Source: a virus (lineage: Duplodnaviria > Heunggongvirae > Uroviricota > Caudoviricetes). Taken from it: a stretch of DNA of 64,000 bases. The stretch is from IMG/VR virus record IMGVR_UViG_2579778842_000017, positions 1 through 64,000 of that record. One strand, written 5' to 3'. The position numbers and the translations under genes are program-made. This document shows positions 28,865 through 61,849 of the stretch, piece after piece (the first letter of the stretch is position 1; each line of letters starts with the position of its first letter). The notes below the pieces were generated by a model. The model worked only from the letters and a program-made list of their open reading frames with translations. It did no database searches and was not told the origin of the DNA.

Positions 28865-31258
28865 TCATACGTCCGCCCCTTGTGCATATCGTCTGCCACG
28901 CGCAGCAGGCGCATTTGATGCTGTGCAAATCTGTCTGGCTTCATCCTGGTCACATGCAACAAAGTGTCCGTTGCAGAACCGCTGGTAAACCGTACCAAGT
29001 GAGCCAAAACGGTTTTTCGTCACGATGATTTCAGCAAATGGCGCGGCGCTACTGTTCTCGTCATATACCGCTTCCCGATAGAGCATGATGATTGAGTCTG
29101 CGTCCTGCTCAATGCTTCCTGAATCACGCAAATCTGCGTTTGTCGGGCGTTTGTTTGGTCGCTTCTCAACATCGCGCGAAAGCTGACTTAGGGAGATAAC
29201 AGGCGTTTTCAAGTCTTTCGCCATCGCCTTCAGGCTTCCTGAGATGTGAGCAATTGCGAGGTCGTTGCGGTCTGCTTTCGGCTTCTCAATCAGGCCAAGA
29301 TAATCCGCCATGATGAGTGAGAGGTTTGGATTTTCCTGTTTGTGCCGTTCTGCGATTGAGCGTATTTCTTCGACCGATAACCGCGAGGCATCGACTACCC
29401 ATACATCCAAATCCGCTAGCTGACTCATGCCGTTAGCAACACGTGCCCAGCCCTCGTCATCCATCGATGCAGGATTTCGCAGTACGCTAACCGACATCCT
29501 CCCGGCGTTGGCAATGCTTCGCTCTGCAATCTGCAATGCGCTCATTTCCATTGAGAAAATCAATACCCCGCGCCGGACGTCAGAACCAGGAATAACGCGG
29601 CTTGCAACGCCTTCGGCAATCTTCAGCGCCAGTTCCGTATTGTGCGTAACGATGTAATCCGTTGTCACATAGAGATGGCTAGGATGGCTTACCATGATGC
29701 AGAGACACTCTTCTGGCTCAACAACTTCAACCGATTTGATACCCACACCAAGGTCGCCAAGCCTGTTAATCCCGAGATTTTTGCGTAAACGTGGTGAGTG
29801 AATTTGCTCTATCAAAGATGATGGCAACTTCATGCTGACCATGTGTGCATCAAGTCCGTCGTGCTTCTCTCCTTTGTACGTGTAAACTATTCCCGTCCTG
29901 CTGGATTCTTTGGCGGTTCCACCTAAAGATCTAACAAGCCTTACTAATCCTTTAGCTAATTTCTGACTGGATGAACTAAAGCGGATGCATCCGGACTTCT
30001 CAACCCAGCCATCTGTCTCGAGAAGGCCAGTTAAAACACCGGTACGTATTTCTTTGCTAGCACTAAAAATTTCTGCTGGGATTTCCTTCTCGGACGCACC
30101 TTTCCCGATCACCCCAATGCCACGTAGTTTGTCCAATAGTGGGTTCTTCTGGCCTTTTTGGTTGCTTATCAAATAATCATTCTCTCCTACCTTAACCAGT
30201 CGCAATGGTGCAATTGCATCACTCATGCGGCTCAGGACATATTCTTCCGAGTTGGTGAATTTGATGCCTTTTATCAACGAACCGTCACCAAGTAGAGCCC
30301 CAATAACCCAACCATCAAGGGGAATATTTTTACCAAAGTCTCCGGTCAAGGATGGCACTCTTATTCTTCCCTGATAACGTGTTTTTTGTAGCATCCCAGC
30401 CAGCGCATCAGTATCAACAACGCGTTTACCAGTAAATCTTGATGATGAAATTTCCCATAAGTGGTTGTCGGCACATTTCACGCTACGTCCGTCTTCAAAG
30501 GTGACTAAATATGTGAATTTCTTCCCTTGTGGGAAGACGCCAATTACCTCCGAAGGAAGCCCGTCTATTGACGCGATGCGATCGCCAATTTTGACTTCTC
30601 CGTGAGTAGTCCAGGTGCCATCTGCAAGTAAAATCCCTTCGCTTAGCGCCATTGCTTTCCCCATACCAGGACGAGCAGCGATTATCACCAGGTCTTCCGC
30701 GTTCATCCCTCCGGTGATGGCATCAAGTTCTTCGATTCCGGTCTTCAGGGTATCGGACTCTTCTCCGTTCCTCAGACGCCTGTCAAGCGTGTCAGTGTAG
30801 TCAGTAATGATTTCCCCTAACCGTACAGGTTTTACCTCGTCACGGGGCTTTCTGATAGCTGAGAGACGTTTTACAAGTTCATCCATCGCCTGACTCGATG
30901 CGTCGATGGTTCCGCTCTGAATTGGTTCACGCATTTCATCCATGATTTCCAGCACCAGACGGCGGTGATAGTTATCCGCGACCATTCCGGCATATCCCTT
31001 CAGGTTTGCGGCACTCGGGCAGTTTTTGCTGGTCATCAGGATTGACGTGAAATGCTCCTCTCCGCACGCCTCGGCAACCATCAGCGCATCGATTAGGTTT
31101 CTGTTTCTCGCCTGCTTGCGGATAACCTCGAAGGCTTTCCGGTAGAGCGGAATTGAAAACGCTTCCGGCTCCAGCGTTGCCAGAACGTCGCTGGCGGTTG
31201 GTGTTAATCCACCAATCAGCAGGCCACCGATAACGCTCGCTTCGATATCCTGTCTCAT
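28865..31258 (-). CDS. Replicative DnaB-like helicase (P22 gene 12-type) interrupted by an in-frame intein
   Basis: 797 aa; Walker A AARPGMGK split from [10 protein letters not shown] by about 339 aa; C-terminal DnaB-like RecA fold. Confidence 0.85.
29639..30655 (-). mobile_element. Intein with LAGLIDADG-type homing endonuclease domain inside the helicase P-loop
   Basis: in-frame insert [13 protein letters not shown]...YIVTHN|T; motifs [13 protein letters not shown] and [11 protein letters not shown]; ends HN followed by Thr; begins with Ala. Confidence 0.65.
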
Positions 31259-32076
31259 GCAATCCCCCTGTCTGCAAACTTCCCTTCCCGTACTCCCGTT
31301 AACGAATCTTCCCTCAGCAGGTAATCAAAATCAGCTGTCCAGCCCGTGTCGTTGTCTCCGAAGTAAAACGGCTTGGCCTGATGCACAAACGCCCTGACAT
31401 ACGCTCTGAAACCGTCCACGTTTGGCGTTTTCAGTTGCGGGATGATTTTCTTCAGGCGGCGTTTGCGTTTCTCGTTGACCGCAACAGCGTGTGGCAGTCT
31501 GTCACCGACTTCGGTGTTGTAGGCGTTCAGGAAGGATTCGTAGTCGATTCGTTCTGCCTTGCGACGTTCAGGTTTAACCTGCCCATCGCCACCCCCGTTA
31601 GGGGGTAAGGGGGTATTTGTATTTATTGTCTTTTGTATATTGTCTTTTGTGTTTAGCTGACTTGGCTTATACCCATTAGCCGACTTGGCTAATGTTTTAT
31701 TAGCTGTTTTAGCTAATGTTAAGCTGTCCTGGCTAATCCACTGAGAAACCACCTTGTTCACTCCGATTTTCACGCCATCAGCAATGAGGAATTTACGCTC
31801 GATAAGCTGGCGCTTGGCAGCGCAAACATGAGTGTGATGAATACCTGTCATGGCTGCTATCTGCGTGTTTGTGAGTCGATCCATCGGCTTATTGAATCCG
31901 TATGTCTTGCGCATGATAGCGAGCATCACCTTCAACTGCCGGACGGTTAAATCAGCCATCAGCAGACTGTCGGTAATCTCGTTAGCAACGCGCATGAAAC
32001 CATCTTCGGTATCTGCCACGCGATGCTCCACGACCTCAAGTTGAGGCCTGTAATCAGCTAACTTAACGACGCCCAT
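31255..32076 (-). CDS. Replication initiation protein (P22 gene 18 / O-like)
   Basis: 273 aa, HTH-like N-terminal region, upstream of helicase. Confidence 0.8.
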
Positions 32077-42808: not shown

Positions 42809-44280
42809 CAGCCGCAGCCATGTCGCCGGAAGAGCAACTCGTCGAGGATATCGCCTCGTTCACGTATGACCCGCTGGGCTATGCGCTGTATGCGTTTCCG
42901 TGGGGCGAGGAAGGCACAGAGCTGGCGCACGCCACCGGTCCGCGTAAGTGGCAGGCAGACGCATTCCGCGAGATACGCGATCACCTGCAGAACCCGGCGA
43001 CGCGTCACCAGCCGTTGATGCTGGCCCGCGCATCCGGCCACGGCATCGGCAAGTCAGCTTTCATCTCAATGCTGATTAACTGGGGCATGTCCACTTGCGA
43101 GGATTGTAAGGTCGTGGTGACCGCCAACACCGACAACCAGCTACGAACGAAGACCTGGCCGGAAATTATCAAGTGGTCGAACCTTGCTATCACGAAAGAC
43201 TGGTTTACCTGTACCGCTACCGCGATGTACAGCAATGACCCTGGGCACGACAAGCGGTGGCGAGCTGACGCAATCCCCTGGTCTGAGCACAACACTGAGG
43301 CATTCGCCGGATTACACAATGAGCGCAAACGCATCATCGTGGTATTCGATGAAGCGTCGAACATTGCGGATCTGGTGTGGGAAGTTGCTGAGGGTGCGCT
43401 TACGGACGAAGACACTGAGATTATCTGGGTGGCGTTCGGAAACCCGACACGTAACACCGGGCGTTTCCGCGAATGTTTCCGCAAATATAAACACCGCTGG
43501 AAAACTGCACAGATTGACAGCCGGACGGTGGAAGGTACTAACAAGCAGCAATTACAGAAATGGGTTGATGACTACGGGGAAGACAGCGACTTCGTTAAAG
43601 TCCGTGTGCGCGGCATATTTCCTGATGCATCTGAATTGCAGTTTATCCCTACCGGTCTTACTGACGAGGCAATGAAACGGGTGGTAACTGCTGCGCAGGT
43701 GGCACATGCTCCGGTGATAATCGGCGTTGACCCGGCATACTCCGGCGTTGATGACGCTGTGATATACCTGCGGCAGGGGCTGCACAGTAAGGTGCTGTGG
43801 ACTGGCAACAAGACCACTGACGATCTGATAATGGCGAAGCGTATCGCTGACTTTGAAGACCAGTACCAGGCTGACGCAGTGTTCATCGACTTCGGTTACG
43901 GAACCGGTCTGAAATCAATCGGTGACGGATGGGGTCGTACATGGCAACTTGTTCCGTTCGGTGGCGCGTCTACTGACCCGCAGATGCTCAACAAGCGTGG
44001 GGAGATGTTCAACTCATGCAAGACATGGCTGAGGCTGGGCGGCATGCTGGATGACCAGGAAACAGCGGACGACCTGTCTGCGGCAGAGTACAAAGTTCGA
44101 GTGGACGGTAAAATCGTTATCGAACCGAAGGAAGATATCAAGGAGCGGCTTGGGCGTTCGCCTGGTAAAGGCGATGCGCTACTGCTGACGTTTGCTTTCC
44201 CGGTGTCAAAGCGCCTGCGACTTCCCGGGCAGCAGAACCAGCAAGGCAAGGCCATCACAGATTACGATCCCTATGCTTAA
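42805..44280 (+). CDS. Terminase large subunit (second virion module)
   Basis: 491 aa; Walker A-like ARASGHGIGKS, nuclease-like C-terminal half. Confidence 0.85.
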   Translation: MTAAAMSPEEQLVEDIASFTYDPLGYALYAFPWGEEGTELAHATGPRKWQADAFREIRDHLQNPATRHQPLMLARASGHGIGKSAFISMLINWGMSTCEDCKVVVTANTDNQLRTKTWPEIIKWSNLAITKDWFTCTATAMYSNDPGHDKRWRADAIPWSEHNTEAFAGLHNERKRIIVVFDEASNIADLVWEVAEGALTDEDTEIIWVAFGNPTRNTGRFRECFRKYKHRWKTAQIDSRTVEGTNKQQLQKWVDDYGEDSDFVKVRVRGIFPDASELQFIPTGLTDEAMKRVVTAAQVAHAPVIIGVDPAYSGVDDAVIYLRQGLHSKVLWTGNKTTDDLIMAKRIADFEDQYQADAVFIDFGYGTGLKSIGDGWGRTWQLVPFGGASTDPQMLNKRGEMFNSCKTWLRLGGMLDDQETADDLSAAEYKVRVDGKIVIEPKEDIKERLGRSPGKGDALLLTFAFPVSKRLRLPGQQNQQGKAITDYDPYA

Positions 44281-44330
44281 TCCGCTTGAGGGGATAATGT
44301 CGTTGATATCCTCTGATGAGGATAAAACAA

Positions 44331-44354
44331 AGCCAGCTCATAGGCTGGCTGTTT
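44331..44354 (+). terminator. Rho-independent terminator after TerL
   Basis: AGCCAGCTCATAGGCTGGCT followed by GTTTGTG. Confidence 0.5.
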
Positions 44355-44366
44355 GTGATATGTCAC
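44355..44366. repeat. Palindrome GTGATATGTCAC (copy 2, one mismatch)
   Basis: immediately after the TerL terminator. Confidence 0.5.
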
Positions 44367-44370
44367 GGTG

Positions 44371-44742
44371 TTATTGCTCGCTTAACTTCTGCTTCAGCAA
44401 GTAACCTTCAAGCATCCAGATTTTGTTTACAGCATTCTGTCGGGCAATCTTCCGACCAATTTCTGCATCAAAGTTTTCCGGGCTTGCACAGGCGCTCTCT
44501 CCGGTGACGGTGAAGCCGTTGCGCAGCACCAGGACGCAGAACGTCAGCAGAGAAAGTGATTCGTGCGGCTGGTAGTTTACCTCTCCGCCAGTATGTTTCG
44601 CTTTTATGGCTACGCCAAAGGCACCATCTTCTGCTGTGAAATATGCCTCCTGAGCAATAATGCTCTCGATATGGTCTGGCGTAACGCGCGGCGCGGCTAA
44701 ACCTTTAGCCTGAATTTCAGATTCAATGTCTTTGTCACTCAT
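44371..44742 (-). CDS. Hypothetical moron protein between terL and portal
   Basis: 123-aa minus-strand ORF inserted in an otherwise plus-strand virion operon. Confidence 0.6.
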   Translation of the reverse strand: MSDKDIESEIQAKGLAAPRVTPDHIESIIAQEAYFTAEDGAFGVAIKAKHTGGEVNYQPHESLSLLTFCVLVLRNGFTVTGESACASPENFDAEIGRKIARQNAVNKIWMLEGYLLKQKLSEQ

Positions 44743-44943
44743 AGTCTAATCTCACCTTAAAAATGCCCGGCGAACCGGGCGAACTGGAAGCAATGAGTTA
44801 TGCCTTCCGTGGCTGTACGGGTTTACAGCATGAAGTCATCGCAATGGCGTCCTGCTGTAAAAAGGGCGGTGATAGTCCTTCAAGGGAAACCATCACCGCC
44901 AAGCCCCTGGAACTTCTGGCATCACGGTCCTTAGGCGTGATTC

Positions 44944-45020
44944 TGGCGTGGCATGCAGGATTCGAACCTGCGACCAACCGCTTAGAAGGCGGTTGCTCTG
45001 TCCGACTGAGCTAATGCCAC
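44944..45020 (-). tRNA. Phage-borne tRNA-Arg (anticodon UCU)
   Basis: minus strand reads GTGGCATTAGCTCAGTCGGACAGAGCAACCGCCTTCTAAGCGGTTGGTCGCAGGTTCGAATCCTGCATGCCACGCCA: 7-bp acceptor stem, anticodon loop CTTCTAA, 3' CCA. Confidence 0.8.
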
Positions 45021-45447
45021 AACGCTGAGAGCACTTAGCCTGTTAAGGCACCACACTTTGTCGCGGCTCCATAAATGCTCTCATCGTTGTACCCTCGTCT
45101 CTTCCGAGGCGTCACACCGAATCGCCGGGATGGTGAATCCCCGTGCGCGGCATAAAACCGCTCGACTTGCACATTCCGGCTACCTGGTTCGTTTGCCCGA
45201 GCAAGGGAGGGTGCCCCTTAAACGTATCCAGACCGCTATCGGCGCATGTGCCATACGCCGTACTGCTCAAAATAAAAGCTCACTCCACCTGTTCAATTTA
45301 ACGACAAGCCAGTCAGGTTAATAACAGGAATGCACTCTATGCTTACCTGAAAGGTAATAATTCGTGCGTTAAATGTCAACTACCTACGATAAATAAATCA
45401 TATGTGGTTAAATTGGTAATAATTTAATTGCGTACGGAGTCATTGAT

Positions 45448-45654
45448 ATGTGCATGGGTAGCTCACCATCAGTGCCTGCAACACCAGAAGTTCAGGCAGC
45501 ACCACAGGAGCAGGATGCCGCCGTTGTTGATGCCCGCGACGAAGAAACTCGTCGCCGTCGCGCTGCTGCTGGTCGTAGTTCTACGCTGCTTACCGGTTCT
45601 CAGGGCGACACATCAACCGCTAATACCAGCGGTAAAACGCTGCTTGGTCAGTAA
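45448..45654 (+). CDS. Small hypothetical protein upstream of portal
   Basis: 68 aa; GGAGTCATTGA-ATG initiation region nearly identical to that of the portal gene. Confidence 0.4.
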   Translation: MCMGSSPSVPATPEVQAAPQEQDAAVVDARDEETRRRRAAAGRSSTLLTGSQGDTSTANTSGKTLLGQ

Positions 45655-45668
45655 CCGGAGTCATTGAA

Positions 45669-47348
45669 ATGGCGGAAACAACTAAAGAGCGATTGAACAA
45701 ACAGTTCGCACAACTTGAAAGCGAGCGTCAGTCGTTCGAGCCGCACTGGCGCGAGTTGAGTGATTACATCAACCCGCGTGGTTCCCGCTTTCTGACTTCT
45801 GAGGTCAACCGTAACGATCGACGCAATACACGCATTATTGATTCGACCGGGACTATGGCGGCGCGCACTCTCGCCAGCGGCATGATGTCAGGCATCACAA
45901 GCCCCGCGCGTCCGTGGTTTCGCCTGGCTACGCCAGATCCTGAAATGATGGATTATGGCCCTGTTAAGTTGTGGCTTGAGGCGGTGCAGAACCGCATGAA
46001 CGATATGTTCAATAAGTCGAATCTCTATCAGTCGCTGCCGCAGTTATACGGAAGCCTCGGCACATACAGCACTGGTGCAATGGCAGTGCTGGAGGATGAC
46101 GAGGACATCATTCGCACAATGCCATTCACGATAGGCAGTTACTACCTGGCTAACTCACCTCGTGGCAGTGTGGACACCTGTTTTCGCAAGTTCTCTATGA
46201 CTGTTCGTCAGCTTGTTCAGGAGTTCGGGCTAAATAACGTCAGCGAATCCGTAAAAAGCATGTGGGAAAGCGGCACCTACGAGAAGTGGATTGAAGTGAT
46301 GCATTCGGTTTACCCGAACATTGACCGCGATACATCGAAGCTGGATAGCAAGAACAAGCCATTCAAATCGGTTTATTACGAGGTTGGTGGCGATAACGAC
46401 AAGTTGTTGCGTGAGTCCGGATTCGATGAGTTTCCAATTATGGCTCCGCGCTGGGAAGTTAACGGCGAAGATGTTTATGGATCATCATGCCCGGGCATGC
46501 TGGCGCTTGGACCTGTTAAGGCATTGCAGCTTCTCCAGAAGCGCAAGTCGCAGTTGATTGATAAAGCCACCAATCCGCCGATGGTTGCTCCGATTTCCCT
46601 CAAGAATCAGCGTGCCTCCCTTCTTCCTGGCGACATCACGTATATCGATCAGATTACTGGTCAGGATGGTTTCAGGCCTGCTTATCTGGTTAACCCCAGT
46701 ACAGCAGATTTGGTGGCAGACATTCAGGACACTCGTCAAATCATTAACAGCGCCTACTTTGTCGATCTGTTCATGATGTTGCAGAACATCAATACCCGCT
46801 CGATGCCTGTTGAAGCGGTGATCGAAATGAAAGAAGAAAAACTTCTGATGTTGGGGCCGGTTCTGGAGCGTCTGAACGACGAATGTCTTAATCCTCTCAT
46901 TGACCGCGCTTTCTCGATGATGGTGCGTAAAAACATGTTGCCGCCACCGCCTGACGCGATGGAAGGCATGCCCCTGAAGGTCGAATACATTTCCGTCATG
47001 GCTCAGGCGCAGAAGTCTATCGGCCTGTCCAGTCTGGCGTCCACGGTTAACTTCATTGGTCAACTTGCGCAAGCGAAACCAGAAGCTCTCGACAAACTCA
47101 ACGTTGATCAGGCGATCGATGCATTCGCTGATATGTCCGGAGTGTCTCCAACCGTCATTGTTCCGCAGGAACAGGTTGAGCAGGCTCGCCAGCAACGGGC
47201 ACAGCAACAACAGCAGCAACAAATGATGGCCATGGGGATGGCGGCGGCACAGGGTGCCAAGACGCTAAGCGAAGCTAAAACTTCGGATCCGAGTGTTTTG
47301 TCAGCTATGGCGAATGCAGTTAGTGGTCAGGGTGGGCAATCACAATGA
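45669..47348 (+). CDS. Portal (head-tail connector) protein, T7-supergroup-like
   Basis: 559 aa; C-terminal QQQQQQMMAMGMAAAQGAKT...AMANAV resembles T7 gp8 C-terminus; follows TerL. Confidence 0.75.
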   Translation: MAETTKERLNKQFAQLESERQSFEPHWRELSDYINPRGSRFLTSEVNRNDRRNTRIIDSTGTMAARTLASGMMSGITSPARPWFRLATPDPEMMDYGPVKLWLEAVQNRMNDMFNKSNLYQSLPQLYGSLGTYSTGAMAVLEDDEDIIRTMPFTIGSYYLANSPRGSVDTCFRKFSMTVRQLVQEFGLNNVSESVKSMWESGTYEKWIEVMHSVYPNIDRDTSKLDSKNKPFKSVYYEVGGDNDKLLRESGFDEFPIMAPRWEVNGEDVYGSSCPGMLALGPVKALQLLQKRKSQLIDKATNPPMVAPISLKNQRASLLPGDITYIDQITGQDGFRPAYLVNPSTADLVADIQDTRQIINSAYFVDLFMMLQNINTRSMPVEAVIEMKEEKLLMLGPVLERLNDECLNPLIDRAFSMMVRKNMLPPPPDAMEGMPLKVEYISVMAQAQKSIGLSSLASTVNFIGQLAQAKPEALDKLNVDQAIDAFADMSGVSPTVIVPQEQVEQARQQRAQQQQQQQMMAMGMAAAQGAKTLSEAKTSDPSVLSAMANAVSGQGGQSQ

Positions 47349-47641
47349 CAGATTACGAAGACGATCAACTGAAAGAAGAAAACGCCCGTAAGCAACGTGA
47401 CATGGCACAGCGTGAAATTGATGACATTCGCTTTGTCATGAGCAGTGAACAGGGGCGTCGCGTTGTCTGGTCTGTGCTGGAGAAAGGCCGTGTGTTTTCC
47501 GCTATCTCTCCGATGGATGCTATGGCAATGGCATTTAATGAGGGGCAACGCAATCTGGCGCTGGAACTGTTTCAGCGCGTTATGGCGCATTGCCCTGAAC
47601 AGTATTTGAAGATGGCCAAAGAGGCCAGTGAACAGGAGTGA
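47345..47641 (+). CDS. Hypothetical head-module protein
   Basis: 98-aa ORF overlapping portal stop. Confidence 0.5.
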   Translation: MTDYEDDQLKEENARKQRDMAQREIDDIRFVMSSEQGRRVVWSVLEKGRVFSAISPMDAMAMAFNEGQRNLALELFQRVMAHCPEQYLKMAKEASEQE

Positions 47642-48339
47642 TCATGAATTTATTTGAGCGTTTGCTGTATCGCCGTCTTTGCAATGAGCAACCAGTCGAT
47701 GGTGGAGCAGCTCCGGCTGCGTCAGAACCATCAGCGCCTGCAGGTGATAACCATGCTCCAGTTGGTGATCCATCACAACAAGAAGGTGATAAGCCGCAAC
47801 CTGTTGCTGATGGCGATAAACCTGCTGATGACAAAAAGTCTGAAAGCGATAAGCAGGGTGAAAAAAAGGACGGCGATAAACCGGATGGTGCGCCGGAGAA
47901 GTACGAGTTTCAGGCTGCCGAAGGCGTAGAGCTGGATACAGAAGCGTTGAAGGAATTCGAGCCGGTGGCGCGAGAACTAAACCTGACCAACGAGCAAGCG
48001 CAAAAGCTGGTTGATGCTTATCCGAAGATTCTGGCAGGTGTTCAGCAGCGCCAGGCAGAAGCCTGGCAGAAAACAACCGAGCAGTGGGCTGCTGATGTAA
48101 AAGCTGACAAAGAAATCGGTGGCGACAAGTTGATTTCTAACCTTAGCGCCGCACAGCGTGCGCTTGACCAGTTCGGGACACCTGAACTCAAAGAATATCT
48201 GAACACCACCGGGCTGGGTAATCACCCTGATCTGGTCAAAACGTTCGTGAAAATCGGAAAGGCGATGTCTGAAGATGGCATGGTCACCGGTGGTAATGAA
48301 GGCCAGCGTAGTGCGGCCGAAGTGCTCTATGGCAAATAA
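47638..48339 (+). CDS. Putative scaffolding protein
   Basis: 233 aa, acidic Pro/Ala/Asp-rich N-terminal region then helical part; between portal and capsid. Confidence 0.55.
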   Translation: MIMNLFERLLYRRLCNEQPVDGGAAPAASEPSAPAGDNHAPVGDPSQQEGDKPQPVADGDKPADDKKSESDKQGEKKDGDKPDGAPEKYEFQAAEGVELDTEALKEFEPVARELNLTNEQAQKLVDAYPKILAGVQQRQAEAWQKTTEQWAADVKADKEIGGDKLISNLSAAQRALDQFGTPELKEYLNTTGLGNHPDLVKTFVKIGKAMSEDGMVTGGNEGQRSAAEVLYGK

Positions 48340-48347
48340 GAGAGGAA

Positions 48348-49340
48348 ATGACAATGGCTGTTAAAGGCTTAACTGCGCTAACGCTGGCTGACTGGGGTAA
48401 GCGCGTCGATCCAAACGGGAAAGTCGATAAGATTATCGAGCTTCTCGGTCAAACTAACCCGATCCTTCAGGATATGCCTTTTGTCGAAGGGAACCTTCCT
48501 ACCGGACACCGAACCACCATTCGTTCTGGTTTACCTTCAGCTACCTGGCGTTTGCTGAACTATGGCGTACAGCCAAGCAAATCAACCACAGTGCAGGTAA
48601 CCGATTCCGTTGGCATGCTGGAAACCTATGCTGAAGTCGATAAGTCACTGGCTGATCTGAACGGCAATACCGCCGAATTCCGCCTGTCTGAAGACCGCGC
48701 ATTTATTGAAGCGATGAATCAGCAGATGGCGCAGACGCTATTTTATGGTGATTCCAGCGTTAACCCTCAGCAGTTTATGGGACTGTCCTCCCGCTATTCC
48801 AGCCTGTCTGCGGGTAATGCTCAGAACATCATTGATGCTGGTGGCACGGGTACAGATAACACCTCCATCTGGTTAGTGGTGTGGGGCGAAAACACCGTGC
48901 ATGGCATCTTCCCGAAAGGGCAGAAGGCTGGCATTCAGATGGAAGATAAAGGCCAGGTGACACTGGAAGATGTTAATGGCGGCAAGTACGAAGGCTACCG
49001 TACCCATTACAAATGGGATAACGGACTTGCTCTGCGTGACTGGCGTTATGTTGTTCGCATTGCAAACATCGATGTCAGCAATCTTTCAGAACCTTCCTCT
49101 GCCGCAAATATTGCGAAGTTGATGGTTAAAGCACTGCATCGCATTCCAAATCGTGGCATGGGTCGCCCGGTGTTCTACATGAACCGCACTGTAGGCCAGG
49201 CTCTTGATCTGCAATCTCTGGAGAAAACATCTCTGGCGATCAGCGTAAAAGAGACAGAAGGCGAGTGGTGGACTTCATTCCGTGGTGTACCAATCCGTGA
49301 AACTGATGCGCTTCTGGAAACAGAAGCCCGCGTGGTGTAA
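48348..49340 (+). CDS. Major capsid protein (second virion module)
   Basis: 330 aa, strong RBS, position after scaffold. Confidence 0.7.
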   Translation: MTMAVKGLTALTLADWGKRVDPNGKVDKIIELLGQTNPILQDMPFVEGNLPTGHRTTIRSGLPSATWRLLNYGVQPSKSTTVQVTDSVGMLETYAEVDKSLADLNGNTAEFRLSEDRAFIEAMNQQMAQTLFYGDSSVNPQQFMGLSSRYSSLSAGNAQNIIDAGGTGTDNTSIWLVVWGENTVHGIFPKGQKAGIQMEDKGQVTLEDVNGGKYEGYRTHYKWDNGLALRDWRYVVRIANIDVSNLSEPSSAANIAKLMVKALHRIPNRGMGRPVFYMNRTVGQALDLQSLEKTSLAISVKETEGEWWTSFRGVPIRETDALLETEARVV

Positions 49341-49391
49341 CGCCTGTTATTAACCTGTGGGTCGTAACAGACCCACTAATGGAGAAAGAAG

Positions 49392-49829
49392 ATGATCACC
49401 GACAAACTGTTGATGTTCTCCGAAGCTCAGGCGGTTACGAATACCGCGGCTTCTACTGACGTAATCGATCTCGGTCCAATTGACGGAAAACGTCGTGATA
49501 TCGGCGTGGGTTACCCGCTTGAGTTTTGGGCGCTGGTTAACACAGCCGCCGCGGCAAGCGGTAATGCAACTGTAAACATCCAGTTGCAGACGAGTGAGAA
49601 TAACAGCTCATGGACCACTATTTATGATAGTGGCGCACTGGCAAAGACCGCCCTGACAGCAGGTAAACGAGTTGTTTCTGCAAAGGTGCCTGCCGGTGTT
49701 CAGCGATATCTGCGTGTTAACTACTCCGTCGCAACCGGCCCACTAACGGCTGGCGAATTCACTGCTGGTATCAGTCTTGATGTTGATGCCAATACGCCGT
49801 ATCCGATCCGCTCAAAAGTAACTGGTTAA
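49392..49829 (+). CDS. Putative capsid decoration / minor head protein
   Basis: 145 aa beta-rich, immediately after capsid gene. Confidence 0.45.
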   Translation: MITDKLLMFSEAQAVTNTAASTDVIDLGPIDGKRRDIGVGYPLEFWALVNTAAAASGNATVNIQLQTSENNSSWTTIYDSGALAKTALTAGKRVVSAKVPAGVQRYLRVNYSVATGPLTAGEFTAGISLDVDANTPYPIRSKVTG

Positions 49830-49830
49830 G

Positions 49831-50175
49831 GTGATATCGATGTCAGGTGAGAAACCAAGATACCGCGTTCTGCGCCTCTCTCATATCCATAACACTCTGT
49901 GGCCGGAGGGGGCAGAAATCGAATACGAAGGTGAGCCTGGTAGCGCACTGGAACCTGTTAACGATGCAGCCAGACAGGCAAAAGCAAAAGTTGCAGGAAA
50001 GGTGTCAATGGCAGCAACCAGCACCAAAATCATCAACGATGTGTCAGATGATGATGAACTGGATAAGCTCCGTGAAGAGTACGAATTGCTCTTTAACGAG
50101 AAGCCACACCATAACGCCAAAGCCGAAACGCTCCGCGAGAAGATCGCAGATAAGCGTAAAGAACTGGGCGTGTAA
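49831..50175 (+). CDS. Hypothetical virion-module protein
   Basis: 114-aa ORF, followed by terminator. Confidence 0.45.
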   Translation: MISMSGEKPRYRVLRLSHIHNTLWPEGAEIEYEGEPGSALEPVNDAARQAKAKVAGKVSMAATSTKIINDVSDDDELDKLREEYELLFNEKPHHNAKAETLREKIADKRKELGV

Positions 50176-50186
50176 GCCTCGCGAAT

Positions 50187-50212
50187 CAGACAAGGGGCTT
50201 CGGCCCCTTTAT
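50187..50212 (+). terminator. Rho-independent terminator
   Basis: AAGGGGCTTCGGCCCCTTTATTG. Confidence 0.65.
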
Positions 50213-50219
50213 TGCAGGA

Positions 50220-50549
50220 GTGTATATGGAACTCGTAAACCTCAAAACCGGCACTGACAGCTACCAGGATGAGAGCGGAGAAACCAGAACTCGCGATGAA
50301 TACCCGTGGGGGCTGTGCATCACTCTTAATAACGACACATTGAATAAGCTGAAGGCGCAACCTCAGGGCGTCGGAACAGAAGTGATGATAACTGCAAAGG
50401 CTGTTATTCGAGGCCTGTCTGCCAGAGAAACTGACGATGGTGTTAATCGCAGCGCCGATCTGCAGATCACTGATATGGCGATCGCTCCTGTTTCCAGGGA
50501 TGTAGAAAAATCAGCGGCTGAAACTCTGTACGGTAACGGAGGTGAGTGA
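50220..50549 (+). CDS. Hypothetical virion-module protein
   Basis: 109-aa ORF. Confidence 0.45.
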   Translation: MYMELVNLKTGTDSYQDESGETRTRDEYPWGLCITLNNDTLNKLKAQPQGVGTEVMITAKAVIRGLSARETDDGVNRSADLQITDMAIAPVSRDVEKSAAETLYGNGGE

Positions 50550-51154
50550 TGGCCTCTGTAGTAGAGATCTGTAATCGTGCGCTGTCCAATATTGGCAACA
50601 GCCGCAGTATTAACAGCCTGACGGAAGCCAGCAAGGAAGCGGGTGAATGTTCGCTGCACTTTGAGGCCTGCCGTGATGCTGTTCTTTCTGATTTTGACTG
50701 GAACTTTGCTACCAAACGCGTGGCGCTTGCAGATACGAGCAATCCACCGCCTGACTGGGAATATGCGTACCAGTACCCGTCCGATTGTCTGCGCATTACT
50801 GAAATTATGCTTCCTGGTGTACGCAATCCAACAGCAGCAATGCGCGTTCAGTACGAAGTTGGTGCAGACACCAACGGAACAGGAAAGTTGATCTACACAG
50901 ACCAGCCGCAGGCATGGCTCAAGTATGTCTCTCGCGTTTCAGATGTGAACATGTTTGATGCCATTTTTATGGAGGCGTTGGCCTGGCGTCTTGCGGCAGC
51001 TATTAACATGGCGCTGACTGGGAATGCAGACCTCGGTACGTTTGCCCTCAATATGTACAATCGCGTGATTCTTAGTGCTGGCTCGCATAGCCAGAATGAA
51101 TCACAGGAACCACAGCCACCGGTTGACGAGTTTACCATTGCGAGGTTGTCCTGA
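50546..51154 (+). CDS. Putative tail adaptor (T7 gp11-like position)
   Basis: 202 aa, precedes the large nozzle-like protein. Confidence 0.5.
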   Translation: MMASVVEICNRALSNIGNSRSINSLTEASKEAGECSLHFEACRDAVLSDFDWNFATKRVALADTSNPPPDWEYAYQYPSDCLRITEIMLPGVRNPTAAMRVQYEVGADTNGTGKLIYTDQPQAWLKYVSRVSDVNMFDAIFMEALAWRLAAAINMALTGNADLGTFALNMYNRVILSAGSHSQNESQEPQPPVDEFTIARLS

Positions 51155-53625
51155 TGGCTATCAGTTGGATCCAGCCCAGCTTTGCCGGTGGTGAGATTGG
51201 ACCGTCGTTGTACGGTCGTATCGACATGGCGAAGTACCAGGTGGCATTGCGCAAGTGCGATAACTTTATCGTGCGGCAGTATGGCGGCGTTGAGAATCGA
51301 CCTGGTACGCGTTTTGTCGGTGCCGCCAAATACCCAAATCGGAAATGCCGCCTAATCCCGTTCCAGTTCTCGACGGTTCAGACTTATGCTCTGGAGTTCG
51401 GACACCAGTACATGCGCGTTATCAAAGATGGTGCGTTGGTGCTGAACAGCAGCAATGTTATTTATGAAATTGCCACGCCATATACTGAAGCCGATCTGTT
51501 CCGAATTAAATTCACGCAAAGCGCAGACGTGCTTACGCTGGTTCATCCGGCATACCCGCCGAAAGAGTTGCGCCGCTATGCGCATGACAACTGGCAACTG
51601 GTTGATGTGGTAACGAAGAACGGGCCATTTGAAGATATCAATATTGACGAGTCAGTGACGGTTTATGCCAGCGCCAGCACCGGGACAATTACGTTAACGG
51701 CAAGCGCCTCAATTTTTGGCGCGGAGCAGGTAGGCAAATTGTTCTATCTGGAACAGCCTGCAGTGGATTCTGTGCCGGTATGGGAAACCAGTAAGAGTAC
51801 GTCGATTGGCGATATTCGCCGTGCAGACAGTAACTACTATCGCGCCGTTACAGCAGGCAAAACAGGCACTTTGCGCCCTTCGCATACAGAAGGCACATCA
51901 TGGGATGGCTGGGGCGGATCCGGTGATGATGATACCGGCATTGAGTGGGAGTATCTGCACAGTGGTTTTGGCATTGCCCGTATCTCTGCTGCAAATGGAA
52001 CTACTGCAACTGCCGAGGTGATTTCCTATATCCCTTCGCAGGTAGTTGGCGAGGATAATGCCAGCTATAAATGGGCTAAATATGCCTGGGACAGTATTAA
52101 CGGTTATCCTGGCACTGTTGTTTATTATCAACAACGCCTTTACTTCGCCGCATCGACTGCGTTCCCTCAGACTATCTGGGCCAGCCGTACCGGGGATTAT
52201 AAGGATTTTGGCAAAAGCAATCCTACGCAGGATGACGACAGAATTATCTACACCTATGCCGGGCGTCAGGTTAATGAGATCCGTCACCTGATTGATGTTG
52301 GTTCGCTGGTGGCGCTGACTTCCGGAGGTGAGTACGTCATCACTGGCGACCAGAACAAAGTGCTTGCCCCATCATCATTTGCATTCAGCTCTCAGGGATC
52401 AAATGGCTCGAGCAATGTCCCACCAATTGCCGTGGCGAATATTGCTCTGTTCGTCCAGGAGAAAGGCAGTGTTGTCCGTGATCTGGCCTACTCATTCGAT
52501 GTTGACGGCTATCAGGGGAACGACCTGACCATCCTTGCCAATCATCTTTTTCAGAAGCACAGCATTGTTGACTGGTGCTTCTCGATTGTCCCTTACTCCA
52601 GCGCCTTCTGCATTCGTGATGACGGTAAATTACTGGTGATGACCTATTTGCGTGATCAGCAGGTTTTTGCATGGGCACCACAATCCAGTACCGGAAAATA
52701 TGAAAGCACATGCAGTATCAGCGAAGGCAATGAAGATGCGGTGTATTTCGTCGTTAACCGAACCGTTAACGGGCAAACAGTGAGATACATCGAGCGGCTG
52801 TCCAGCCGTTTATTTACCAGCGATGAAGATGCTTTCTTTGTTGATTCTGGCCTTAGCTATGATGGAAGAAATACGTCTGACAGAACGATGACCATCACTG
52901 GTGGTTCTGGTGAATGGGATTACCGTGCGGAATATACAATCAGTGTTTCTGGTGGTGCGTACTTCACCAGTAGTGATGTCGGCGCGCAACTACAGTTCCC
53001 TTATACCGGAACTGATCCTGGTACTGGCGATGAAGTGTCAAAAGAATTACGTTGCGACATTATTTCTGTAACCAGCAATACCGCTGTAGTGGTTCGTGCT
53101 AACAGGAACGTCCCGCCATCCCTCAGGAATGTGGCCACCACGAACTGGCAGATGGCGCGCCGGACATTTGGAGGCCTGTCTCATCTTGAAGGCCAGACCG
53201 TAAACATTCTCTCTGATGCGAACGTGGAACCACAGAAAGTAGTTTCCGGAGGTGCCGTCACGCTGGAATCTCCGGGGGCTGTAGTGCACATCGGCCTGCC
53301 AATAACTGCTGAATTCGAAACACTGGATATCAACATTAACGGACAGGAAACGCTGCTGGACAAAAAACAGGTGATCCCGTCCGTTACTCTGGTTGTGAAT
53401 GCCAGCCGCGGCATCTGGGCGACTACGCCTGGCGGTAAATGGTACGAATATCCACAGCGTGAATTCGAGTTCTACGATGATCCTGTTGATGATGCTACCG
53501 GAAAAGTAGAAGTGAAACTGGACAGTAACTGGGGCAAAAACGGACGTGTAAAAATCCGTCAGCTTGACCCGTTGCCGCTGTCTGTTCTTGCCGTTATTCC
53601 TCGCCTTACTGTTGGGGGATTCTGA
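51154..53625 (+). CDS. Putative tail nozzle / tail tubular protein B
   Basis: 823 aa, translationally coupled to upstream gene; size and position as T7 gp12. Confidence 0.55.
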   Translation: MAISWIQPSFAGGEIGPSLYGRIDMAKYQVALRKCDNFIVRQYGGVENRPGTRFVGAAKYPNRKCRLIPFQFSTVQTYALEFGHQYMRVIKDGALVLNSSNVIYEIATPYTEADLFRIKFTQSADVLTLVHPAYPPKELRRYAHDNWQLVDVVTKNGPFEDINIDESVTVYASASTGTITLTASASIFGAEQVGKLFYLEQPAVDSVPVWETSKSTSIGDIRRADSNYYRAVTAGKTGTLRPSHTEGTSWDGWGGSGDDDTGIEWEYLHSGFGIARISAANGTTATAEVISYIPSQVVGEDNASYKWAKYAWDSINGYPGTVVYYQQRLYFAASTAFPQTIWASRTGDYKDFGKSNPTQDDDRIIYTYAGRQVNEIRHLIDVGSLVALTSGGEYVITGDQNKVLAPSSFAFSSQGSNGSSNVPPIAVANIALFVQEKGSVVRDLAYSFDVDGYQGNDLTILANHLFQKHSIVDWCFSIVPYSSAFCIRDDGKLLVMTYLRDQQVFAWAPQSSTGKYESTCSISEGNEDAVYFVVNRTVNGQTVRYIERLSSRLFTSDEDAFFVDSGLSYDGRNTSDRTMTITGGSGEWDYRAEYTISVSGGAYFTSSDVGAQLQFPYTGTDPGTGDEVSKELRCDIISVTSNTAVVVRANRNVPPSLRNVATTNWQMARRTFGGLSHLEGQTVNILSDANVEPQKVVSGGAVTLESPGAVVHIGLPITAEFETLDININGQETLLDKKQVIPSVTLVVNASRGIWATTPGGKWYEYPQREFEFYDDPVDDATGKVEVKLDSNWGKNGRVKIRQLDPLPLSVLAVIPRLTVGGF

Positions 53626-54089
53626 TGATCGATGTTCAAATTATTCCCGCAACCGAAGAGCATCTTCAGATGATTTTGCCGGATGTTCGTCAGGCTGATA
53701 TTGACGAACTGTATGCGGTATCACTGATGACTACCGAAGATGCGCTGCGTGTTGGTCTGCGTACTGCGACTATGGCCTGGTCAGGATTTGCGAACGGAGA
53801 ACTGGTAACCATGTTTGGCGTATCTCCGGCGTCAATGATCGGTGGCAATGGTACGCCCTGGCTGGTAGGAACCAGCCGTATTGAAAAATATCAGAAGACA
53901 TTTCTGCGCCACTGCCGCCCTGTATTGCAGCAGATGCTGGCAGTTTATCCGCGCCTGGAAAACTACGTCGACGAGCGAAACCATGTTGCCAAAGCATGGC
54001 TGCACTGGCTTGGATTCAGGCTTGAAGAAGCCGCGCCTTATGGTGCTCTTGGTCTTAATTTCCACAGATTTCACATGGAGAGAAAATAA
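53625..54089 (+). CDS. Hypothetical virion protein
   Basis: 154-aa ORF coupled to neighbours. Confidence 0.5.
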   Translation: MIDVQIIPATEEHLQMILPDVRQADIDELYAVSLMTTEDALRVGLRTATMAWSGFANGELVTMFGVSPASMIGGNGTPWLVGTSRIEKYQKTFLRHCRPVLQQMLAVYPRLENYVDERNHVAKAWLHWLGFRLEEAAPYGALGLNFHRFHMERK

Positions 54090-54634
54090 TGTGCGATCCG
54101 GTTATTGCTGGTGGCGCAATGCTCGCCATGAGTGGCATTCAGGCATACACCCAGTACCAACAGGGAAAGTATGTCTCGAAGGTTGCAGAAGCGAACGCAG
54201 ATATAGCCACAGCTCAGGCAAATGATGCAATAAACAGAGGTAACGCTGAAGCTGAGCAACGGCGCAGAGAGACCCGACAGCGGCTTGGTACACAGGCGGC
54301 GACAATGGGGGCTACCGGCGCTGATTTATCTACAGGTAACGCGCTGGATATATTTGGCGACACTGCCCAGTTTGGCGCTCTTGATTCGCTGACGACGGTG
54401 AATAACGCGCAACGCGAGGCTTACGGTTATCAGGTTCAGGCTGCCAACTATAAAGCAGAAGCCAGTTCAGCCCGTAAACAGGGGAATGTGGGAGCAGCAA
54501 CAACATTGCTCACCGCGCCTCTGAAGGCATACGGTGCGTACCAGATGTTTGGTGGGACGTGGAGTCCGTTTACTCAAAGCACTCCTGCGCCAATCGGGGC
54601 AGCAGCAGGAACCAGATTACCCGGAGGATTATAA
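54089..54634 (+). CDS. Putative internal virion protein (hydrophobic N-terminus)
   Basis: 181 aa; MCDPVIAGGAMLAMSGIQAY. Confidence 0.5.
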   Translation: MCDPVIAGGAMLAMSGIQAYTQYQQGKYVSKVAEANADIATAQANDAINRGNAEAEQRRRETRQRLGTQAATMGATGADLSTGNALDIFGDTAQFGALDSLTTVNNAQREAYGYQVQAANYKAEASSARKQGNVGAATTLLTAPLKAYGAYQMFGGTWSPFTQSTPAPIGAAAGTRLPGGL

Positions 54635-57147: not shown

Positions 57148-58946
57148 GTTACTTTGGCCTTAATCCAGTAAACCAGAATCAGCAGCTTGACGAAGCAGCA
57201 TCAAATCCAGCTGGCTTTAACAGCGATGTTGGTTTTTTCGACAATGCTGTAGGAGCGGCATTGTCTGGTTTGTACTCCGGGCTGGTGGCAAAGCCAGATC
57301 AGTTGCTATGGGCAGGGATGGATAAAATCGTATCCCCGATTGCTCAGTTTGTTAACGAAAACACCTCGCTCAATGACACTTCAGTTTCATACATTGCTGA
57401 GCAGAGAAAACTAGCAGAGCAGCAGGTTAAGCGGCTGACGCCTGATGCCGCGACAACCGGAACCGCCGGGCAGGTCCTTTATGGGTTGTTCGATATGGGC
57501 GGGCAGGCTGTTGTCGGTACAACGCTCGGTGGTCCGGTCGGAGGTGCTGCGGCGGTAACTTCGCTACAGGGTTTTTCTGAGTTTGAACGGCTGACAGCAC
57601 AGGGTGTTGATTTCAGGACGGCGCAGGAAGCGGGATTAGTGCAGGGTATTACTGCTGGTGCCGGAACACTGATCCCTATGAGCCTCGGGTTACGTGCTGG
57701 TGGTGCGCTGGCGGAAGGTGTGGCGGCTCAGCTTGCGCGGACGGGTGAAAGTTCAGTGCGACGCGCCGCAGCAACAGCAGTACGTGCAACGCCAGATATT
57801 GCCTATGCCGCAGGTACAAATATTGCGTTCGGTATGGCACAGCGTGGGCTTACTGCAAAAACGCTTCGTGATGGTGGCTATAGCGAAATGGCTAACCAGT
57901 ATGATGTGTTGGATCGACAGGCAATTGCTATTGATGCTGTTCTTGGGGTGGCGTTTGGTGGTGTCGGCAGATTTATTAACTCTCGCGGCGAGTCTACAAG
58001 CGCACCAAATTTTTCACCAGTTGATATTGATGCTGCACTGGCGGCGAATGCCGCTCATCATGCTGAAATTGATATTGCTCCCGGCGTTCCGATCAACGTG
58101 CTTTCGCGTAATTCGCACATTCAGGCTCTGCGAAAAGCCATGTCTGATGTTAGCCAGGGGAGACCTGTAGACGTTGCCAGCATTGTTGAGTCTGCATCTT
58201 TCAGTGAAATTCCTGGGCGCAAGAGTCTGCTGTCTCAGGCAGTTAATGAGGCTCTGTCATCTGTAGATGATGGAGTAACTGCGCGCGCTATAGAAAATCG
58301 GTTGCTTGAAGAACAGGCCGCGCAGCTTTTGTCGCGTGGCGATAGACAGGTTTACCAGTCTGAAATCGCTAATAGCCAACGAATTATTGAAAATCTCACT
58401 GAACAGCGCGCACAAATTCTTGCAGAAGAGCCAACCGGTAGCGGTAAGGCTTTATCTCGTGCTCGATCAGATAAACAGGCCAGACTTCGCGATATTGACC
58501 AACGAATCCGGCAGGCACAAGAACGCCTGGAATTTTCTCGTAACGCGTTGGCGCCGCACGAGCCTGGAGGTCAGTTTTTTGAAGCTCGAGCAGAACTGGC
58601 ACGACGACAGCAGGCAGAAAGTGAACTTAATGCTCAGGCTGTTTCATTCTATAAAACAGCAGAGGTCAGGACGCCAGACGAAGTAGCTCCTTTTGAGCCC
58701 GGTAAGATATTGCAACAGACAGAACAAAAAATGATGGCAGATCCGGCAGGAGATATTGATCTGCGTATAGCTGAAGACTCGCTGCTTGAATCTCCGGACA
58801 TGATAATCACCGTGCTGGATGATGATGGTAATCCACAATCGCGCAGTGCGCGTGAAGTACTGGATGAAGCGAACAGGGAAAGTGAGCAGGCAATACAGGA
58901 TTCCAGCCTGTTTGATGTCGCTGTGGCGTGTTTCTTGAGAGGTTAA
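57144..58946 (+). CDS. Large internal virion / ejection protein
   Basis: 600 aa, Ala/Gly-rich. Confidence 0.6.
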   Translation: MSYFGLNPVNQNQQLDEAASNPAGFNSDVGFFDNAVGAALSGLYSGLVAKPDQLLWAGMDKIVSPIAQFVNENTSLNDTSVSYIAEQRKLAEQQVKRLTPDAATTGTAGQVLYGLFDMGGQAVVGTTLGGPVGGAAAVTSLQGFSEFERLTAQGVDFRTAQEAGLVQGITAGAGTLIPMSLGLRAGGALAEGVAAQLARTGESSVRRAAATAVRATPDIAYAAGTNIAFGMAQRGLTAKTLRDGGYSEMANQYDVLDRQAIAIDAVLGVAFGGVGRFINSRGESTSAPNFSPVDIDAALAANAAHHAEIDIAPGVPINVLSRNSHIQALRKAMSDVSQGRPVDVASIVESASFSEIPGRKSLLSQAVNEALSSVDDGVTARAIENRLLEEQAAQLLSRGDRQVYQSEIANSQRIIENLTEQRAQILAEEPTGSGKALSRARSDKQARLRDIDQRIRQAQERLEFSRNALAPHEPGGQFFEARAELARRQQAESELNAQAVSFYKTAEVRTPDEVAPFEPGKILQQTEQKMMADPAGDIDLRIAEDSLLESPDMIITVLDDDGNPQSRSAREVLDEANRESEQAIQDSSLFDVAVACFLRG

Positions 58947-58951
58947 ATTAA

Positions 58952-61426: not shown

Positions 61427-61435
61427 GGAACAACA

Positions 61436-61849
61436 ATGAAGGAATTATTGCTGTTATCGGTATTTTTGATATCCGCTTGCTCGACATCCTATGATGTTTA
61501 TGACGGTGTTGATAAGGCATATTGCGACAAAGTTAAAATGGATTTTTCTCTTGCCAAGACGGCGAAGGATAGTTGTATTGATCACTACGTCAAGACTTAT
61601 ACCAAGCCAGCCTCATCGGCATCTGATATTGCTGAAGGTGCTGTGTTTGAGTGTAACAAGGTGATATCCATCGCAGCGAGTTCTTCATACGATGCTGCTG
61701 TATGTGCAATGGCTGAAAGAAACGGCATGTCAGTGCAAAAAATTAATAGCATGATAAGCAGTAATGACGAAGCCAAAATAAGAACTGATATCAGCTCGGT
61801 GAAAAAAGATGCCATGAACAGAGTTGTAAAATATCAGTCATCTTTATAA
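61436..61849 (+). CDS. Lipoprotein (candidate superinfection-exclusion protein)
   Basis: 137 aa, signal peptide with lipobox LISAC; lower GC than neighbours. Confidence 0.6.
   Translation: MKELLLLSVFLISACSTSYDVYDGVDKAYCDKVKMDFSLAKTAKDSCIDHYVKTYTKPASSASDIAEGAVFECNKVISIAASSSYDAAVCAMAERNGMSVQKINSMISSNDEAKIRTDISSVKKDAMNRVVKYQSSL

Follow-up and report, generated by a model that had tools for sequence, protein, structure and literature searches.

An intein with a class 3 signature and a LAGLIDADG endonuclease domain in the P-loop of a P22-like prophage helicase

The interrupted helicase gene

The 64,000-nucleotide stretch of viral DNA analysed here (positions 1 to 64,000 of the IMG/VR record IMGVR_UViG_2579778842_000017, Caudoviricetes; hereafter the window) carries on its minus strand a gene for a DnaB-family replicative helicase of the P22 gp12 type. 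The Walker A motif (P-loop) of this helicase is interrupted in frame by a 339-residue segment that we identify, from its sequence and modelled structure, as an intein. The gene and its parts are laid out as follows, the vertical bar in the sequences below marking the insertion junctions.

28865..31258, minus strand: precursor gene for the interrupted P22 gp12-type DnaB-family replicative helicase, a single 797-amino acid open reading frame (ORF), 87.0 kDa
30656..31258, minus strand: N-extein, residues 1-201, delimited by alignment with the intein-less phi330 and P22 alleles
30656..30667, minus strand: first half of the Walker A motif, GMGK, closing the N-extein
29639..30655, minus strand: intein, 339 amino acids (36.9 kDa, pI 8.7), predicted to be class 3 and to contain a LAGLIDADG homing endonuclease
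28865..29638, minus strand: C-extein, residues 541-797, the remaining RecA-like ATPase core of the helicase (Pfam DnaB_C stretch 540-762)

The identity of the host protein is clear from Pfam matches of the precursor to both DnaB domains (DnaB, N-terminal domain, 8.9e-13; DnaB_C, 3.7e-71), the second of which is broken into two stretches by the insert, and from the GMGKT motif that appears once the insert is taken out. Because of the insertion, NCBIfam helicase scores of the precursor fall below cut-off (TIGR00665, 322 against 385). In the phage and the Escherichia coli collections alike, the closest match to the gene stands at 99.0%. From the computed mass of the precursor, 87.0 kDa, the insert accounts for 36.9 kDa and the remainder for 50.1 kDa.

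The insert comprises precursor residues 202-540, is encoded by exactly 29639..30655 and cuts the Walker A motif between its Lys and its Thr (GMGK|A...THN|T). When a virtual spliced protein of 458 amino acids, made by deleting the 339 residues, was searched by tblastn against phage genomes, it matched the helicase of Escherichia phage vB_EcoS_phi330 with 100% identity in a single ungapped piece, a match that a boundary shift of one residue would destroy, and P22 gene 12 with 90.4% identity. The boundaries of the intein are therefore unambiguous at the protein level. At the DNA level the empty site reads GGTATGGG(G/T)AAA|ACCGAACTGGCG in 7/7 intein-less E. coli and phi330 alleles compared, and P22 differs from these by nearby synonymous changes only; the empty-site sequence of phi330 and P22 is GCTCGTCCTGGTATGGGGAAAACCGAACTGGCGCTGAAGATT. 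The base composition of the gene breaks at both boundaries, the insert having a G+C content of 45.8% (43.7% at third codon positions, GC3) against 52.5-53.1% (GC3 53-58%) in the exteins. A boundary at Ser5 or with a two-residue linker was considered and ruled out by the empty-site alleles and by the alignment of block A across the intein family, and the small opposite-strand ORFs that fall within the insert were treated as spurious.

The insert is also rare among close relatives of the gene. In a survey of 5426 complete E. coli genomes, with helicase carriers counted at a nucleotide identity of at least 95%, the helicase was present in 712 and the insert in only 24 of these; the other 688 have a 1377-nucleotide gene annotated as 'replicative DNA helicase'. 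The segment thus interrupts a conserved host protein in frame and is precisely what the orthologues lack. A first-pass annotation of the window had described a helicase ORF about 339 residues too long, had placed the excess at 29639-30655 and had predicted that its removal would restore the Walker A motif. Each of these points holds: the excess is exactly 339 residues, as the genes of P22, phi330 and most E. coli carriers demonstrate, the coordinates are exact to the base (the minus strand having been left implicit) and the 458-residue product reads GMGKT. The same annotation had named an alignment with the intein-less P22 gene 12 as a check, the outcome of which is the 90.4% identity given above, and had noted that its proposal would fall if the segment were a normal helicase domain in related phages; it is missing from both P22 and phi330.

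An explanation of this kind, in which the helicase lineage regularly has the segment as an accessory domain and no mobile insertion is involved, is next to impossible. Nothing beyond the segment's being in frame speaks for it; the seamless junction in P22, phi330 and the 688 E. coli carriers without the insert already refutes it, and the compositional break at both boundaries and the homology to inteins in unrelated ATPases, described below, add to this.

Identity of the insert

The insert carries the splicing blocks of an intein, namely A (ILLADG), B (NHLW), F and G (IVTHN), the last followed by Thr+1. Among 5.8 billion proteins we found 87 relatives, with expect values down to E = 8e-123, and in nearly all of the full-length relatives the segment opens with Ala straight after GK or GR and closes with THN followed by Thr. 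The hosts of these related inteins are P-loop or related ATPases (DnaB, PhoH, AAA_30, IstB, RecA and SNF2). Relatives were also present in 828 phage records, among them mycobacteriophage terminases and helicases and the helicases of SETP3-like Salmonella phages.

Between the splicing blocks lies the putative endonuclease domain, whose recognisable elements are listed here.

30275..30310, minus strand: LAGLIDADG motif 1, intein residues 116-127, with putative catalytic Asp124 (Asp in 44/45 homologues)
30002..30037, minus strand: LAGLIDADG motif 2, intein residues 207-218, with putative catalytic Asp215 (Pfam LAGLIDADG_3; aligned with LAGLIDSDGYV of PI-SceI; Asp in 45/45 homologues)
30077..30088, minus strand: endonuclease block D, KEIP (Lys190...Pro193), aligned with KNIP of PI-SceI

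The Lys and Pro of block D are invariant in our intein alignment (A1). Two motifs, each with an acidic end residue (Asp124 and Asp215), together with Lys190 of block D, make up the expected equipment of a LAGLIDADG (DOD) endonuclease. In Pfam searches the insert scored above cut-off for LAGLIDADG_3 (29.0 bits, cut-off 22.5) and Hom_end (21.8 bits, cut-off 21.1), whereas the match to Hom_end_hint, which represents the HINT splicing domain, was weak (17-19 bits, cut-off 32). The two LAGLIDADG-like blocks reported in the first-pass annotation are present.

The splicing domain is better seen by comparison with solved structures. In phmmer searches the splicing part of the insert matched gp41-1 (6riz; 5e-11), the Mch DnaBi1 intein (6rix; 9e-8) and the Msm DnaBi1 intein (6bs8; 3e-7), and the middle part matched the endonuclease domain of PI-SceI, with KEIP aligned to KNIP in block D and LLETDGWV to LIDSDGYV in block E. 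An AlphaFold2 model of the intein, built from 41 sequences, has a mean predicted local distance difference test score (pLDDT) of 94.1 and a predicted template modelling score (pTM) of 0.92. The best overall Foldseek match of this model is PI-SceI (E = 3e-18, query TM 0.72), with other intein endonucleases also matched, and its HINT domain is covered by class 3 mini-inteins (target TM 0.75-0.77); the model further matches gp41-1 and the hedgehog autoprocessing domain, in keeping with a HINT fold. Because there are 87 homologues and a confident structure model, the match of the insert to inteins is not due to chance. On the strength of its sequence and its modelled fold, we take the insert to be an intein that combines HINT splicing blocks with a LAGLIDADG endonuclease domain of two motifs.

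Splicing class

Class 3 inteins are defined by the lack of an N-terminal nucleophile, by a co-varying triplet of Trp at block B position 12, Cys at block F position 4 and Thr at block G position 5 (the WCT triplet), and by Thr or Ser at the +1 position (Tori 2010; Tori and Perler, PLoS One 2011). Most of them sit in the ATPase P-loop of helicase-like proteins (Tori 2010). The corresponding residues of the window intein are listed below with their conservation in 45 homologues, whose selection demanded a C-terminal [TV]HN and nucleophile and which therefore give independent evidence in the Trp, Cys and N-terminal columns only.

30653..30655, minus strand: Ala1 (GCA), block A position 1, an intein start without a nucleophile; Ala in 32/36 homologues covering the column
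30455..30463, minus strand: block B His65-Leu66-Trp67 (CAC TTA TGG), with His at B10 and Trp, the W of WCT, at B12; His and Trp in 45/45 homologues
29699..29701, minus strand: Cys319 (TGC), block F position 4, the predicted initiating nucleophile; in 45/45 homologues
29639..29647, minus strand: block G Thr337-His338-Asn339 (ACG CAC AAT), with Thr G5, the penultimate His and the terminal Asn
29636..29638, minus strand: Thr+1 (ACG), which is Thr541 and begins the C-extein; in Walker A it is the Thr of GKT

Ala1 of the homologous inteins is always preceded by GK or GR, and in the family block A, A-Q-P-L-D-S-x-I-L-T-P-x-G, it stands at the place of the usual Cys1. Block F reads ECLCIMV, with a further Cys two residues upstream of Cys319 (CLC). 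The columns that define the class align with AHQW/RCVEV/PTHN of Mch DnaBi1 and QHQW/RCVEV/PTHN of Msm DnaBi1 (HMMER) and with HLW/RCITV/PTHN|T of the mycobacteriophage Catera gp206 intein (BLASTP). Judged by its residues, the intein carries the full class 3 signature: neither Cys, Ser nor Thr at position 1, a complete WCT triplet (Trp67, Cys319 and Thr337) and Thr at +1. The first-pass annotation had read the Ala start and the HN+Thr end correctly, and its suggestion of a class 3-like mechanism is strengthened by Trp B12, Cys F4 and Thr G5, which complete the signature and align with 6rix, 6bs8 and Catera gp206.

Some other splicing route, either direct attack by the +1 residue on the N-terminal junction, as in class 2 (KlbA-like) inteins, or class 1 splicing from a shifted boundary using Ser5, is highly improbable. 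Ala1 is also a hallmark of the class 2 KlbA inteins, and there is indeed a Ser at intein position 5. Thr at +1 and a complete WCT triplet exclude class 2, which uses Cys+1 and lacks the triplet (Tori 2010), and Ala at position 1, with a boundary fixed by the empty-site alleles, excludes class 1. A start at Ser5 would conflict with the K|T junction, which intein-less alleles match at 100%, and block A of the family has Ala in its first position.

Distribution, diversity and mobility

Sequence diversity was compared in a set of eight intein-containing alleles, drawn from the window, from O121 and O157 prophages encoding Shiga toxin 2a (Stx2a) and from prophages of dog, horse, pigeon, human and sediment isolates. 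Among these the intein shows 99.3-99.9% identity, compared with 96-98.7% for the exteins, and has 13 variable sites in 1017 nucleotides where the exteins have 81 in 1377. It is found on several different flanking haplotypes. The nonsynonymous share of the variable sites is 5/13 in the intein and 6/81 in the exteins, and none of these sites touches a catalytic residue. Taken together, the distribution of the intein and its pattern of diversity fit those of a homing element. Its lower G+C content and the 50.9%-identical intein in the P-loop of the non-orthologous primase-helicase of phages Min27 and phi24B, described below, point the same way.

Further afield, Leminorella grimontii ATCC 33999 (NZ_AUUA01000027.1, locus L021:1799-4267) encodes an 822-amino acid prophage DnaB-like helicase in which the same Lys|Thr site is occupied by an intein 70.8% identical to that of the window. 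The N- and C-exteins of this helicase are only 30% and 37.5% identical to those of the window, and comparison of the sequences thus indicates transfer of the intein between distant helicase lineages.

The codon for Thr+1 is ACG in 7/7 intein-containing alleles and ACC in 7/7 intein-less E. coli and phi330 alleles and in P22, and it is the only intein-specific flanking site in this comparison of seven alleles with seven. A co-conversion tract had been suggested by an initial comparison of the window with one Stx2a prophage and phi330, in which a block of synonymous changes within ~75 nucleotides of the junction seemed to be linked to the intein. This was dropped when all seven intein-containing and seven intein-less alleles were compared, the changes proving to be ordinary haplotypes common to intein-less genes.

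These data bear on whether the endonuclease is still active. It may be that the intein splices with an endonuclease that no longer cuts, and that it has spread only by vertical descent and by ordinary recombination of lambdoid replication modules. That account, unlikely on balance though by no means far-fetched, would explain why the single-nucleotide polymorphism haplotypes near the junction are common to intein-less alleles and leave Thr+1 as the sole intein-specific flanking codon, and it sits well with the higher nonsynonymous fraction in the intein and with its rarity (24/712 carriers). It is less easily squared with the LAGLIDADG Asp residues and block D Lys, which are intact and conserved in homologues, or with an endonuclease domain that is modelled at high confidence. 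Active or recently active homing, moreover, predicts both a diversity in the intein 4-5 times below that of its flanks and the presence of related inteins at the same site in very different helicases.

Two degraded copies deserve mention. In E. coli ET734 (locus L008:3518-4496) an insertion of the IS66 family truncates the C-extein, leaving a dead helicase and an intein that is still intact. In E. coli Res13-Lact-ER02-39 and five sister pig isolates (locus L003:3001-3052) only the last 52 nucleotides of the intein and 6 nucleotides of the C-extein are left, at 100% identity, abutting a truncated 'DNA transfer protein' gene; this remnant has the look of a scar left by deletion in a degraded prophage that formerly carried the intein.

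Prophage context and annotation

An apparently complete P22/Sf6/IME10-like prophage, which holds integrase, tailspike, coat, portal and terminase genes and adjoins tRNA-Arg(CCU), carries the helicase gene in its replication module (cI-cro-cII-O-helicase-nin). The ATG of the helicase gene shares bases with the stop codon of the O-like replication gene that lies upstream, a translational overlap. A second prophage lies next to the first, the boundary between them falling somewhere around 41-44 kb.

31255..32076, minus strand: O-like replication initiator gene, upstream of the helicase; annotated 'replication protein' at the same position in related prophages
1009-1083 and 1209-2393: tRNA-Arg(CCU) and integrase, the start of the P22/Sf6/IME10-like prophage
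from ~44 kb (44000-64000): second, adjacent phiV10/epsilon15-like prophage, 97% identical to phages HEMP4 and phiV10
44944-45020: tRNA-Arg(UCU) of the phiV10-like prophage
45669-47348: T7-type portal gene of the phiV10-like prophage

The same intein-containing helicase module is present in 51 Stx2a-phage records, and carriers of the intein include Stx2a prophages of O121:H19 and of some O157:H7 strains. Just downstream of the helicase, the nin region of related prophages contains genes for a free-standing NUMOD4-domain protein and an HNH endonuclease (L001:6279-6881, L011:4636-5247 and L012:4370-4981); no free-standing homing-endonuclease-like gene is found at the matching place in the window (28.2-28.9 kb).

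In public genomes the interrupted gene is hard to recognise. The NCBI Prokaryotic Genome Annotation Pipeline (PGAP) gives every RefSeq copy that we inspected (L001:2398-4791; L007-L012:1898-4291) as two or three partial or pseudogene coding sequences, or as a coding sequence that starts inside the intein. The N-terminal piece is named 'DnaB-like helicase N-terminal domain-containing protein' (pseudo, partial) and is accompanied by one or two C-terminal fragments. The splitting is apparently an artefact that the insertion causes in annotation.

Taken at face value, the RefSeq annotation implies a decayed intein that no longer splices and a helicase that is a pseudogene in a defective prophage. 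We regard this as quite improbable. The fragmented gene models and the confinement of all copies to prophages would fit it, and there is a precedent for a dead class 3 intein in Arsp-FB24 Arth_1007 (Tori and Perler, PLoS One 2011). Set against this, the 797 codons are uninterrupted in the window, as they are in 7/7 sampled copies free of the IS66 insertion, and the intein keeps all of the residues required for class 3 splicing, whereas the dead Arthrobacter intein is without Cys F4. The exteins are under strong purifying selection, as seen from the few amino acid-changing sites noted above, and the PGAP split looks like the product of gene models unable to accommodate the insert.

Proposed splicing and homing

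As a whole, these observations are very probably best explained by a class 3 intein with a LAGLIDADG homing endonuclease that splices out of the P-loop of the prophage helicase and homes into intein-less alleles. The 87-kDa precursor would be translated with a physically split ATP-binding loop and, because the Walker A motif is split, would presumably be unable to bind ATP and inactive as a helicase. By the class 3 pathway (Tori 2010), Cys319 at F4 would attack the Lys201-Ala202 bond with the assistance of the variant block B (His65 and Trp67), placing the N-extein on block F as a branched thioester. The N-extein would then be transferred to the side chain of Thr541 (Thr+1) and cyclisation of Asn339 would free the intein, after which an O-to-N acyl shift would create a normal Lys-Thr bond, giving GMGKT and a 50-kDa helicase the same as that of intein-less alleles. 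Once released, the 37-kDa intein would, by prediction, act as a LAGLIDADG endonuclease. It would cut intein-less alleles in their continuous P-loop coding sequence, ...GGTATGGGGAAA|ACCGAACTGGCG..., for instance when phages co-infect a cell or when a prophage and a phage meet, and repair of the break would copy the intein in (homing).

Several points weigh against this interpretation. The data show the insertion with its boundaries, the catalytic residues, the fold and a mobile element's population pattern, whereas we infer from sequence that the intein splices, that it does so through a branched intermediate at block F and that it cleaves DNA. Every intein-containing copy found is a prophage sequence and none a propagated virion, and helicase function is therefore presumptive. 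The higher nonsynonymous share in the intein suggests relaxed constraint, possibly on the endonuclease. Finally, a single recent insertion followed by ordinary recombination of the exteins could look similar within E. coli.

There is also a small chance that splicing is conditional, so that the intein would serve as a post-translational gate on prophage replication, with oxidants or metals reversibly blocking maturation of the helicase. The catalytic Cys319 lies within a CxC motif (Cys317-Leu-Cys319) and block B contains Cys61; an analogy is offered by the DnaBi1 intein of mycobacteria, also of class 3, for which sensitivity of splicing to oxidative stress and to zinc is reported (PMC6195587 and PMC7360933). 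If splicing were conditional in this way, the intein could modulate amplification of the phage genome after induction and hence the dose of Shiga toxin.

Whether or not splicing is regulated, the replication helicases that the intein interrupts include those of clinically relevant Stx2a prophages, and the current RefSeq annotation both hides the intein and makes intact prophage replication modules look defective. In the literature on inteins together with Stx2/Shiga toxin prophages or lambdoid phages we found no description of the present helicase intein; an earlier registration in InBase is possible. According to a review-level statement, inteins seem to be lacking in E. coli and Salmonella (Kelley 2016). 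The 24 carriers among 5426 complete genomes contradict this general remark, E. coli carrying inteins by way of its prophages. With natural intein-containing and intein-less alleles whose exteins are 97-100% identical, the genetically tractable E. coli/P22-like system would allow class 3 splicing, homing and possible conditional splicing to be studied in vivo.

Comparison with known inteins

A phage helicase with a class 3 LAGLIDADG intein separating its Walker A Lys and Thr is a well-known case and implies no new mechanism, Lys|Thr being the 'classic' position for insertion into a P-loop (Kelley 2016). The closest described sequence relative that we found is the intein in the P primase-helicase of Min27, phi24B and Stx2a_F451, which is of similar size (342 amino acids) and 50.9% identical over the whole 339 residues; the uncharacterised Leminorella intein is closer. 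The P intein shares the Ala1...THN|T ends, the ECLCIMV block F, the WCT residues and both LAGLIDADG motifs, and likewise follows the Walker A Lys (GVNGHGK|ACPLNEPILLADG...YVATHN|TEVV) in the replication helicase of a temperate phage of E. coli. Its host, however, is a non-orthologous TOPRIM-primase/gp4-type helicase with a C-extein only 24.5% identical over 143 aligned residues, and the P intein thus represents a distinct lineage and a distinct insertion allele. Min27 gene P (locus L002:1858-4440) has an 860-amino acid product, the same in phi24B, Stx2a_F451 and Stx2a_F403, and one 65-nucleotide stretch is 83% identical at the DNA level between the Min27-type and window inteins. The P intein was mentioned by Smith et al. 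(2012) and left uncharacterised, and the related ShP-Sfv primase inteins were in InBase.

PI-SceI, the yeast VMA1 intein, has the same two-domain architecture of HINT and LAGLIDADG parts, and its blocks D and E align with those of the window intein. It differs in being a class 1 intein (Cys1, Cys+1) of 454 amino acids with ~15% identity, hosted by a eukaryotic V-ATPase. The Msm (6bs8) and Mch (6rix) DnaBi1 inteins, which like the present one interrupt a DnaB protein, and gp41-1 (6riz) resemble its splicing domain in sequence (5e-11 to 3e-7) and in fold (target TM 0.75-0.80) and share the aligned catalytic Trp, Cys and Thr columns. In contrast to the window intein, all three are mini-inteins lacking an endonuclease and are found in chromosomal dnaB or in metagenomic cyanophage-like genes, and gp41-1 is a Cys1 intein.

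Full-length similarity, endonuclease included, is seen with the intein of mycobacteriophage Catera gp206 (28% identity, E = 2e-31), which shares HLW, the block F Cys, THN and Thr+1 in register. Apart from the low identity, this intein differs in having Ser as its first residue and a host protein other than a DnaB helicase; efficient class 3 splicing has been reported for it (Tori and Perler, PLoS One 2011).

The class 3 prototype, the DnaB intein of mycobacteriophage Bethlehem (MP-Be DnaB), is alike in interrupting a phage DnaB-like helicase and in having no N-terminal nucleophile, the WCT triplet, Thr+1 and a length of ~341 amino acids, as described by Tori (2010). A tblastn search of the window precursor against part of the Bethlehem record (AY500153, 28000-52250) gave no match, and the DnaB-like helicase annotated there (gp62) has only 273 amino acids. 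MP-Be DnaB differs from the window intein in starting with Pro1 and not Ala1 and in coming from a phage of an actinobacterial host. The mechanism that we propose for the intein in the window is the one that has been demonstrated for MP-Be DnaB (Tori 2010).

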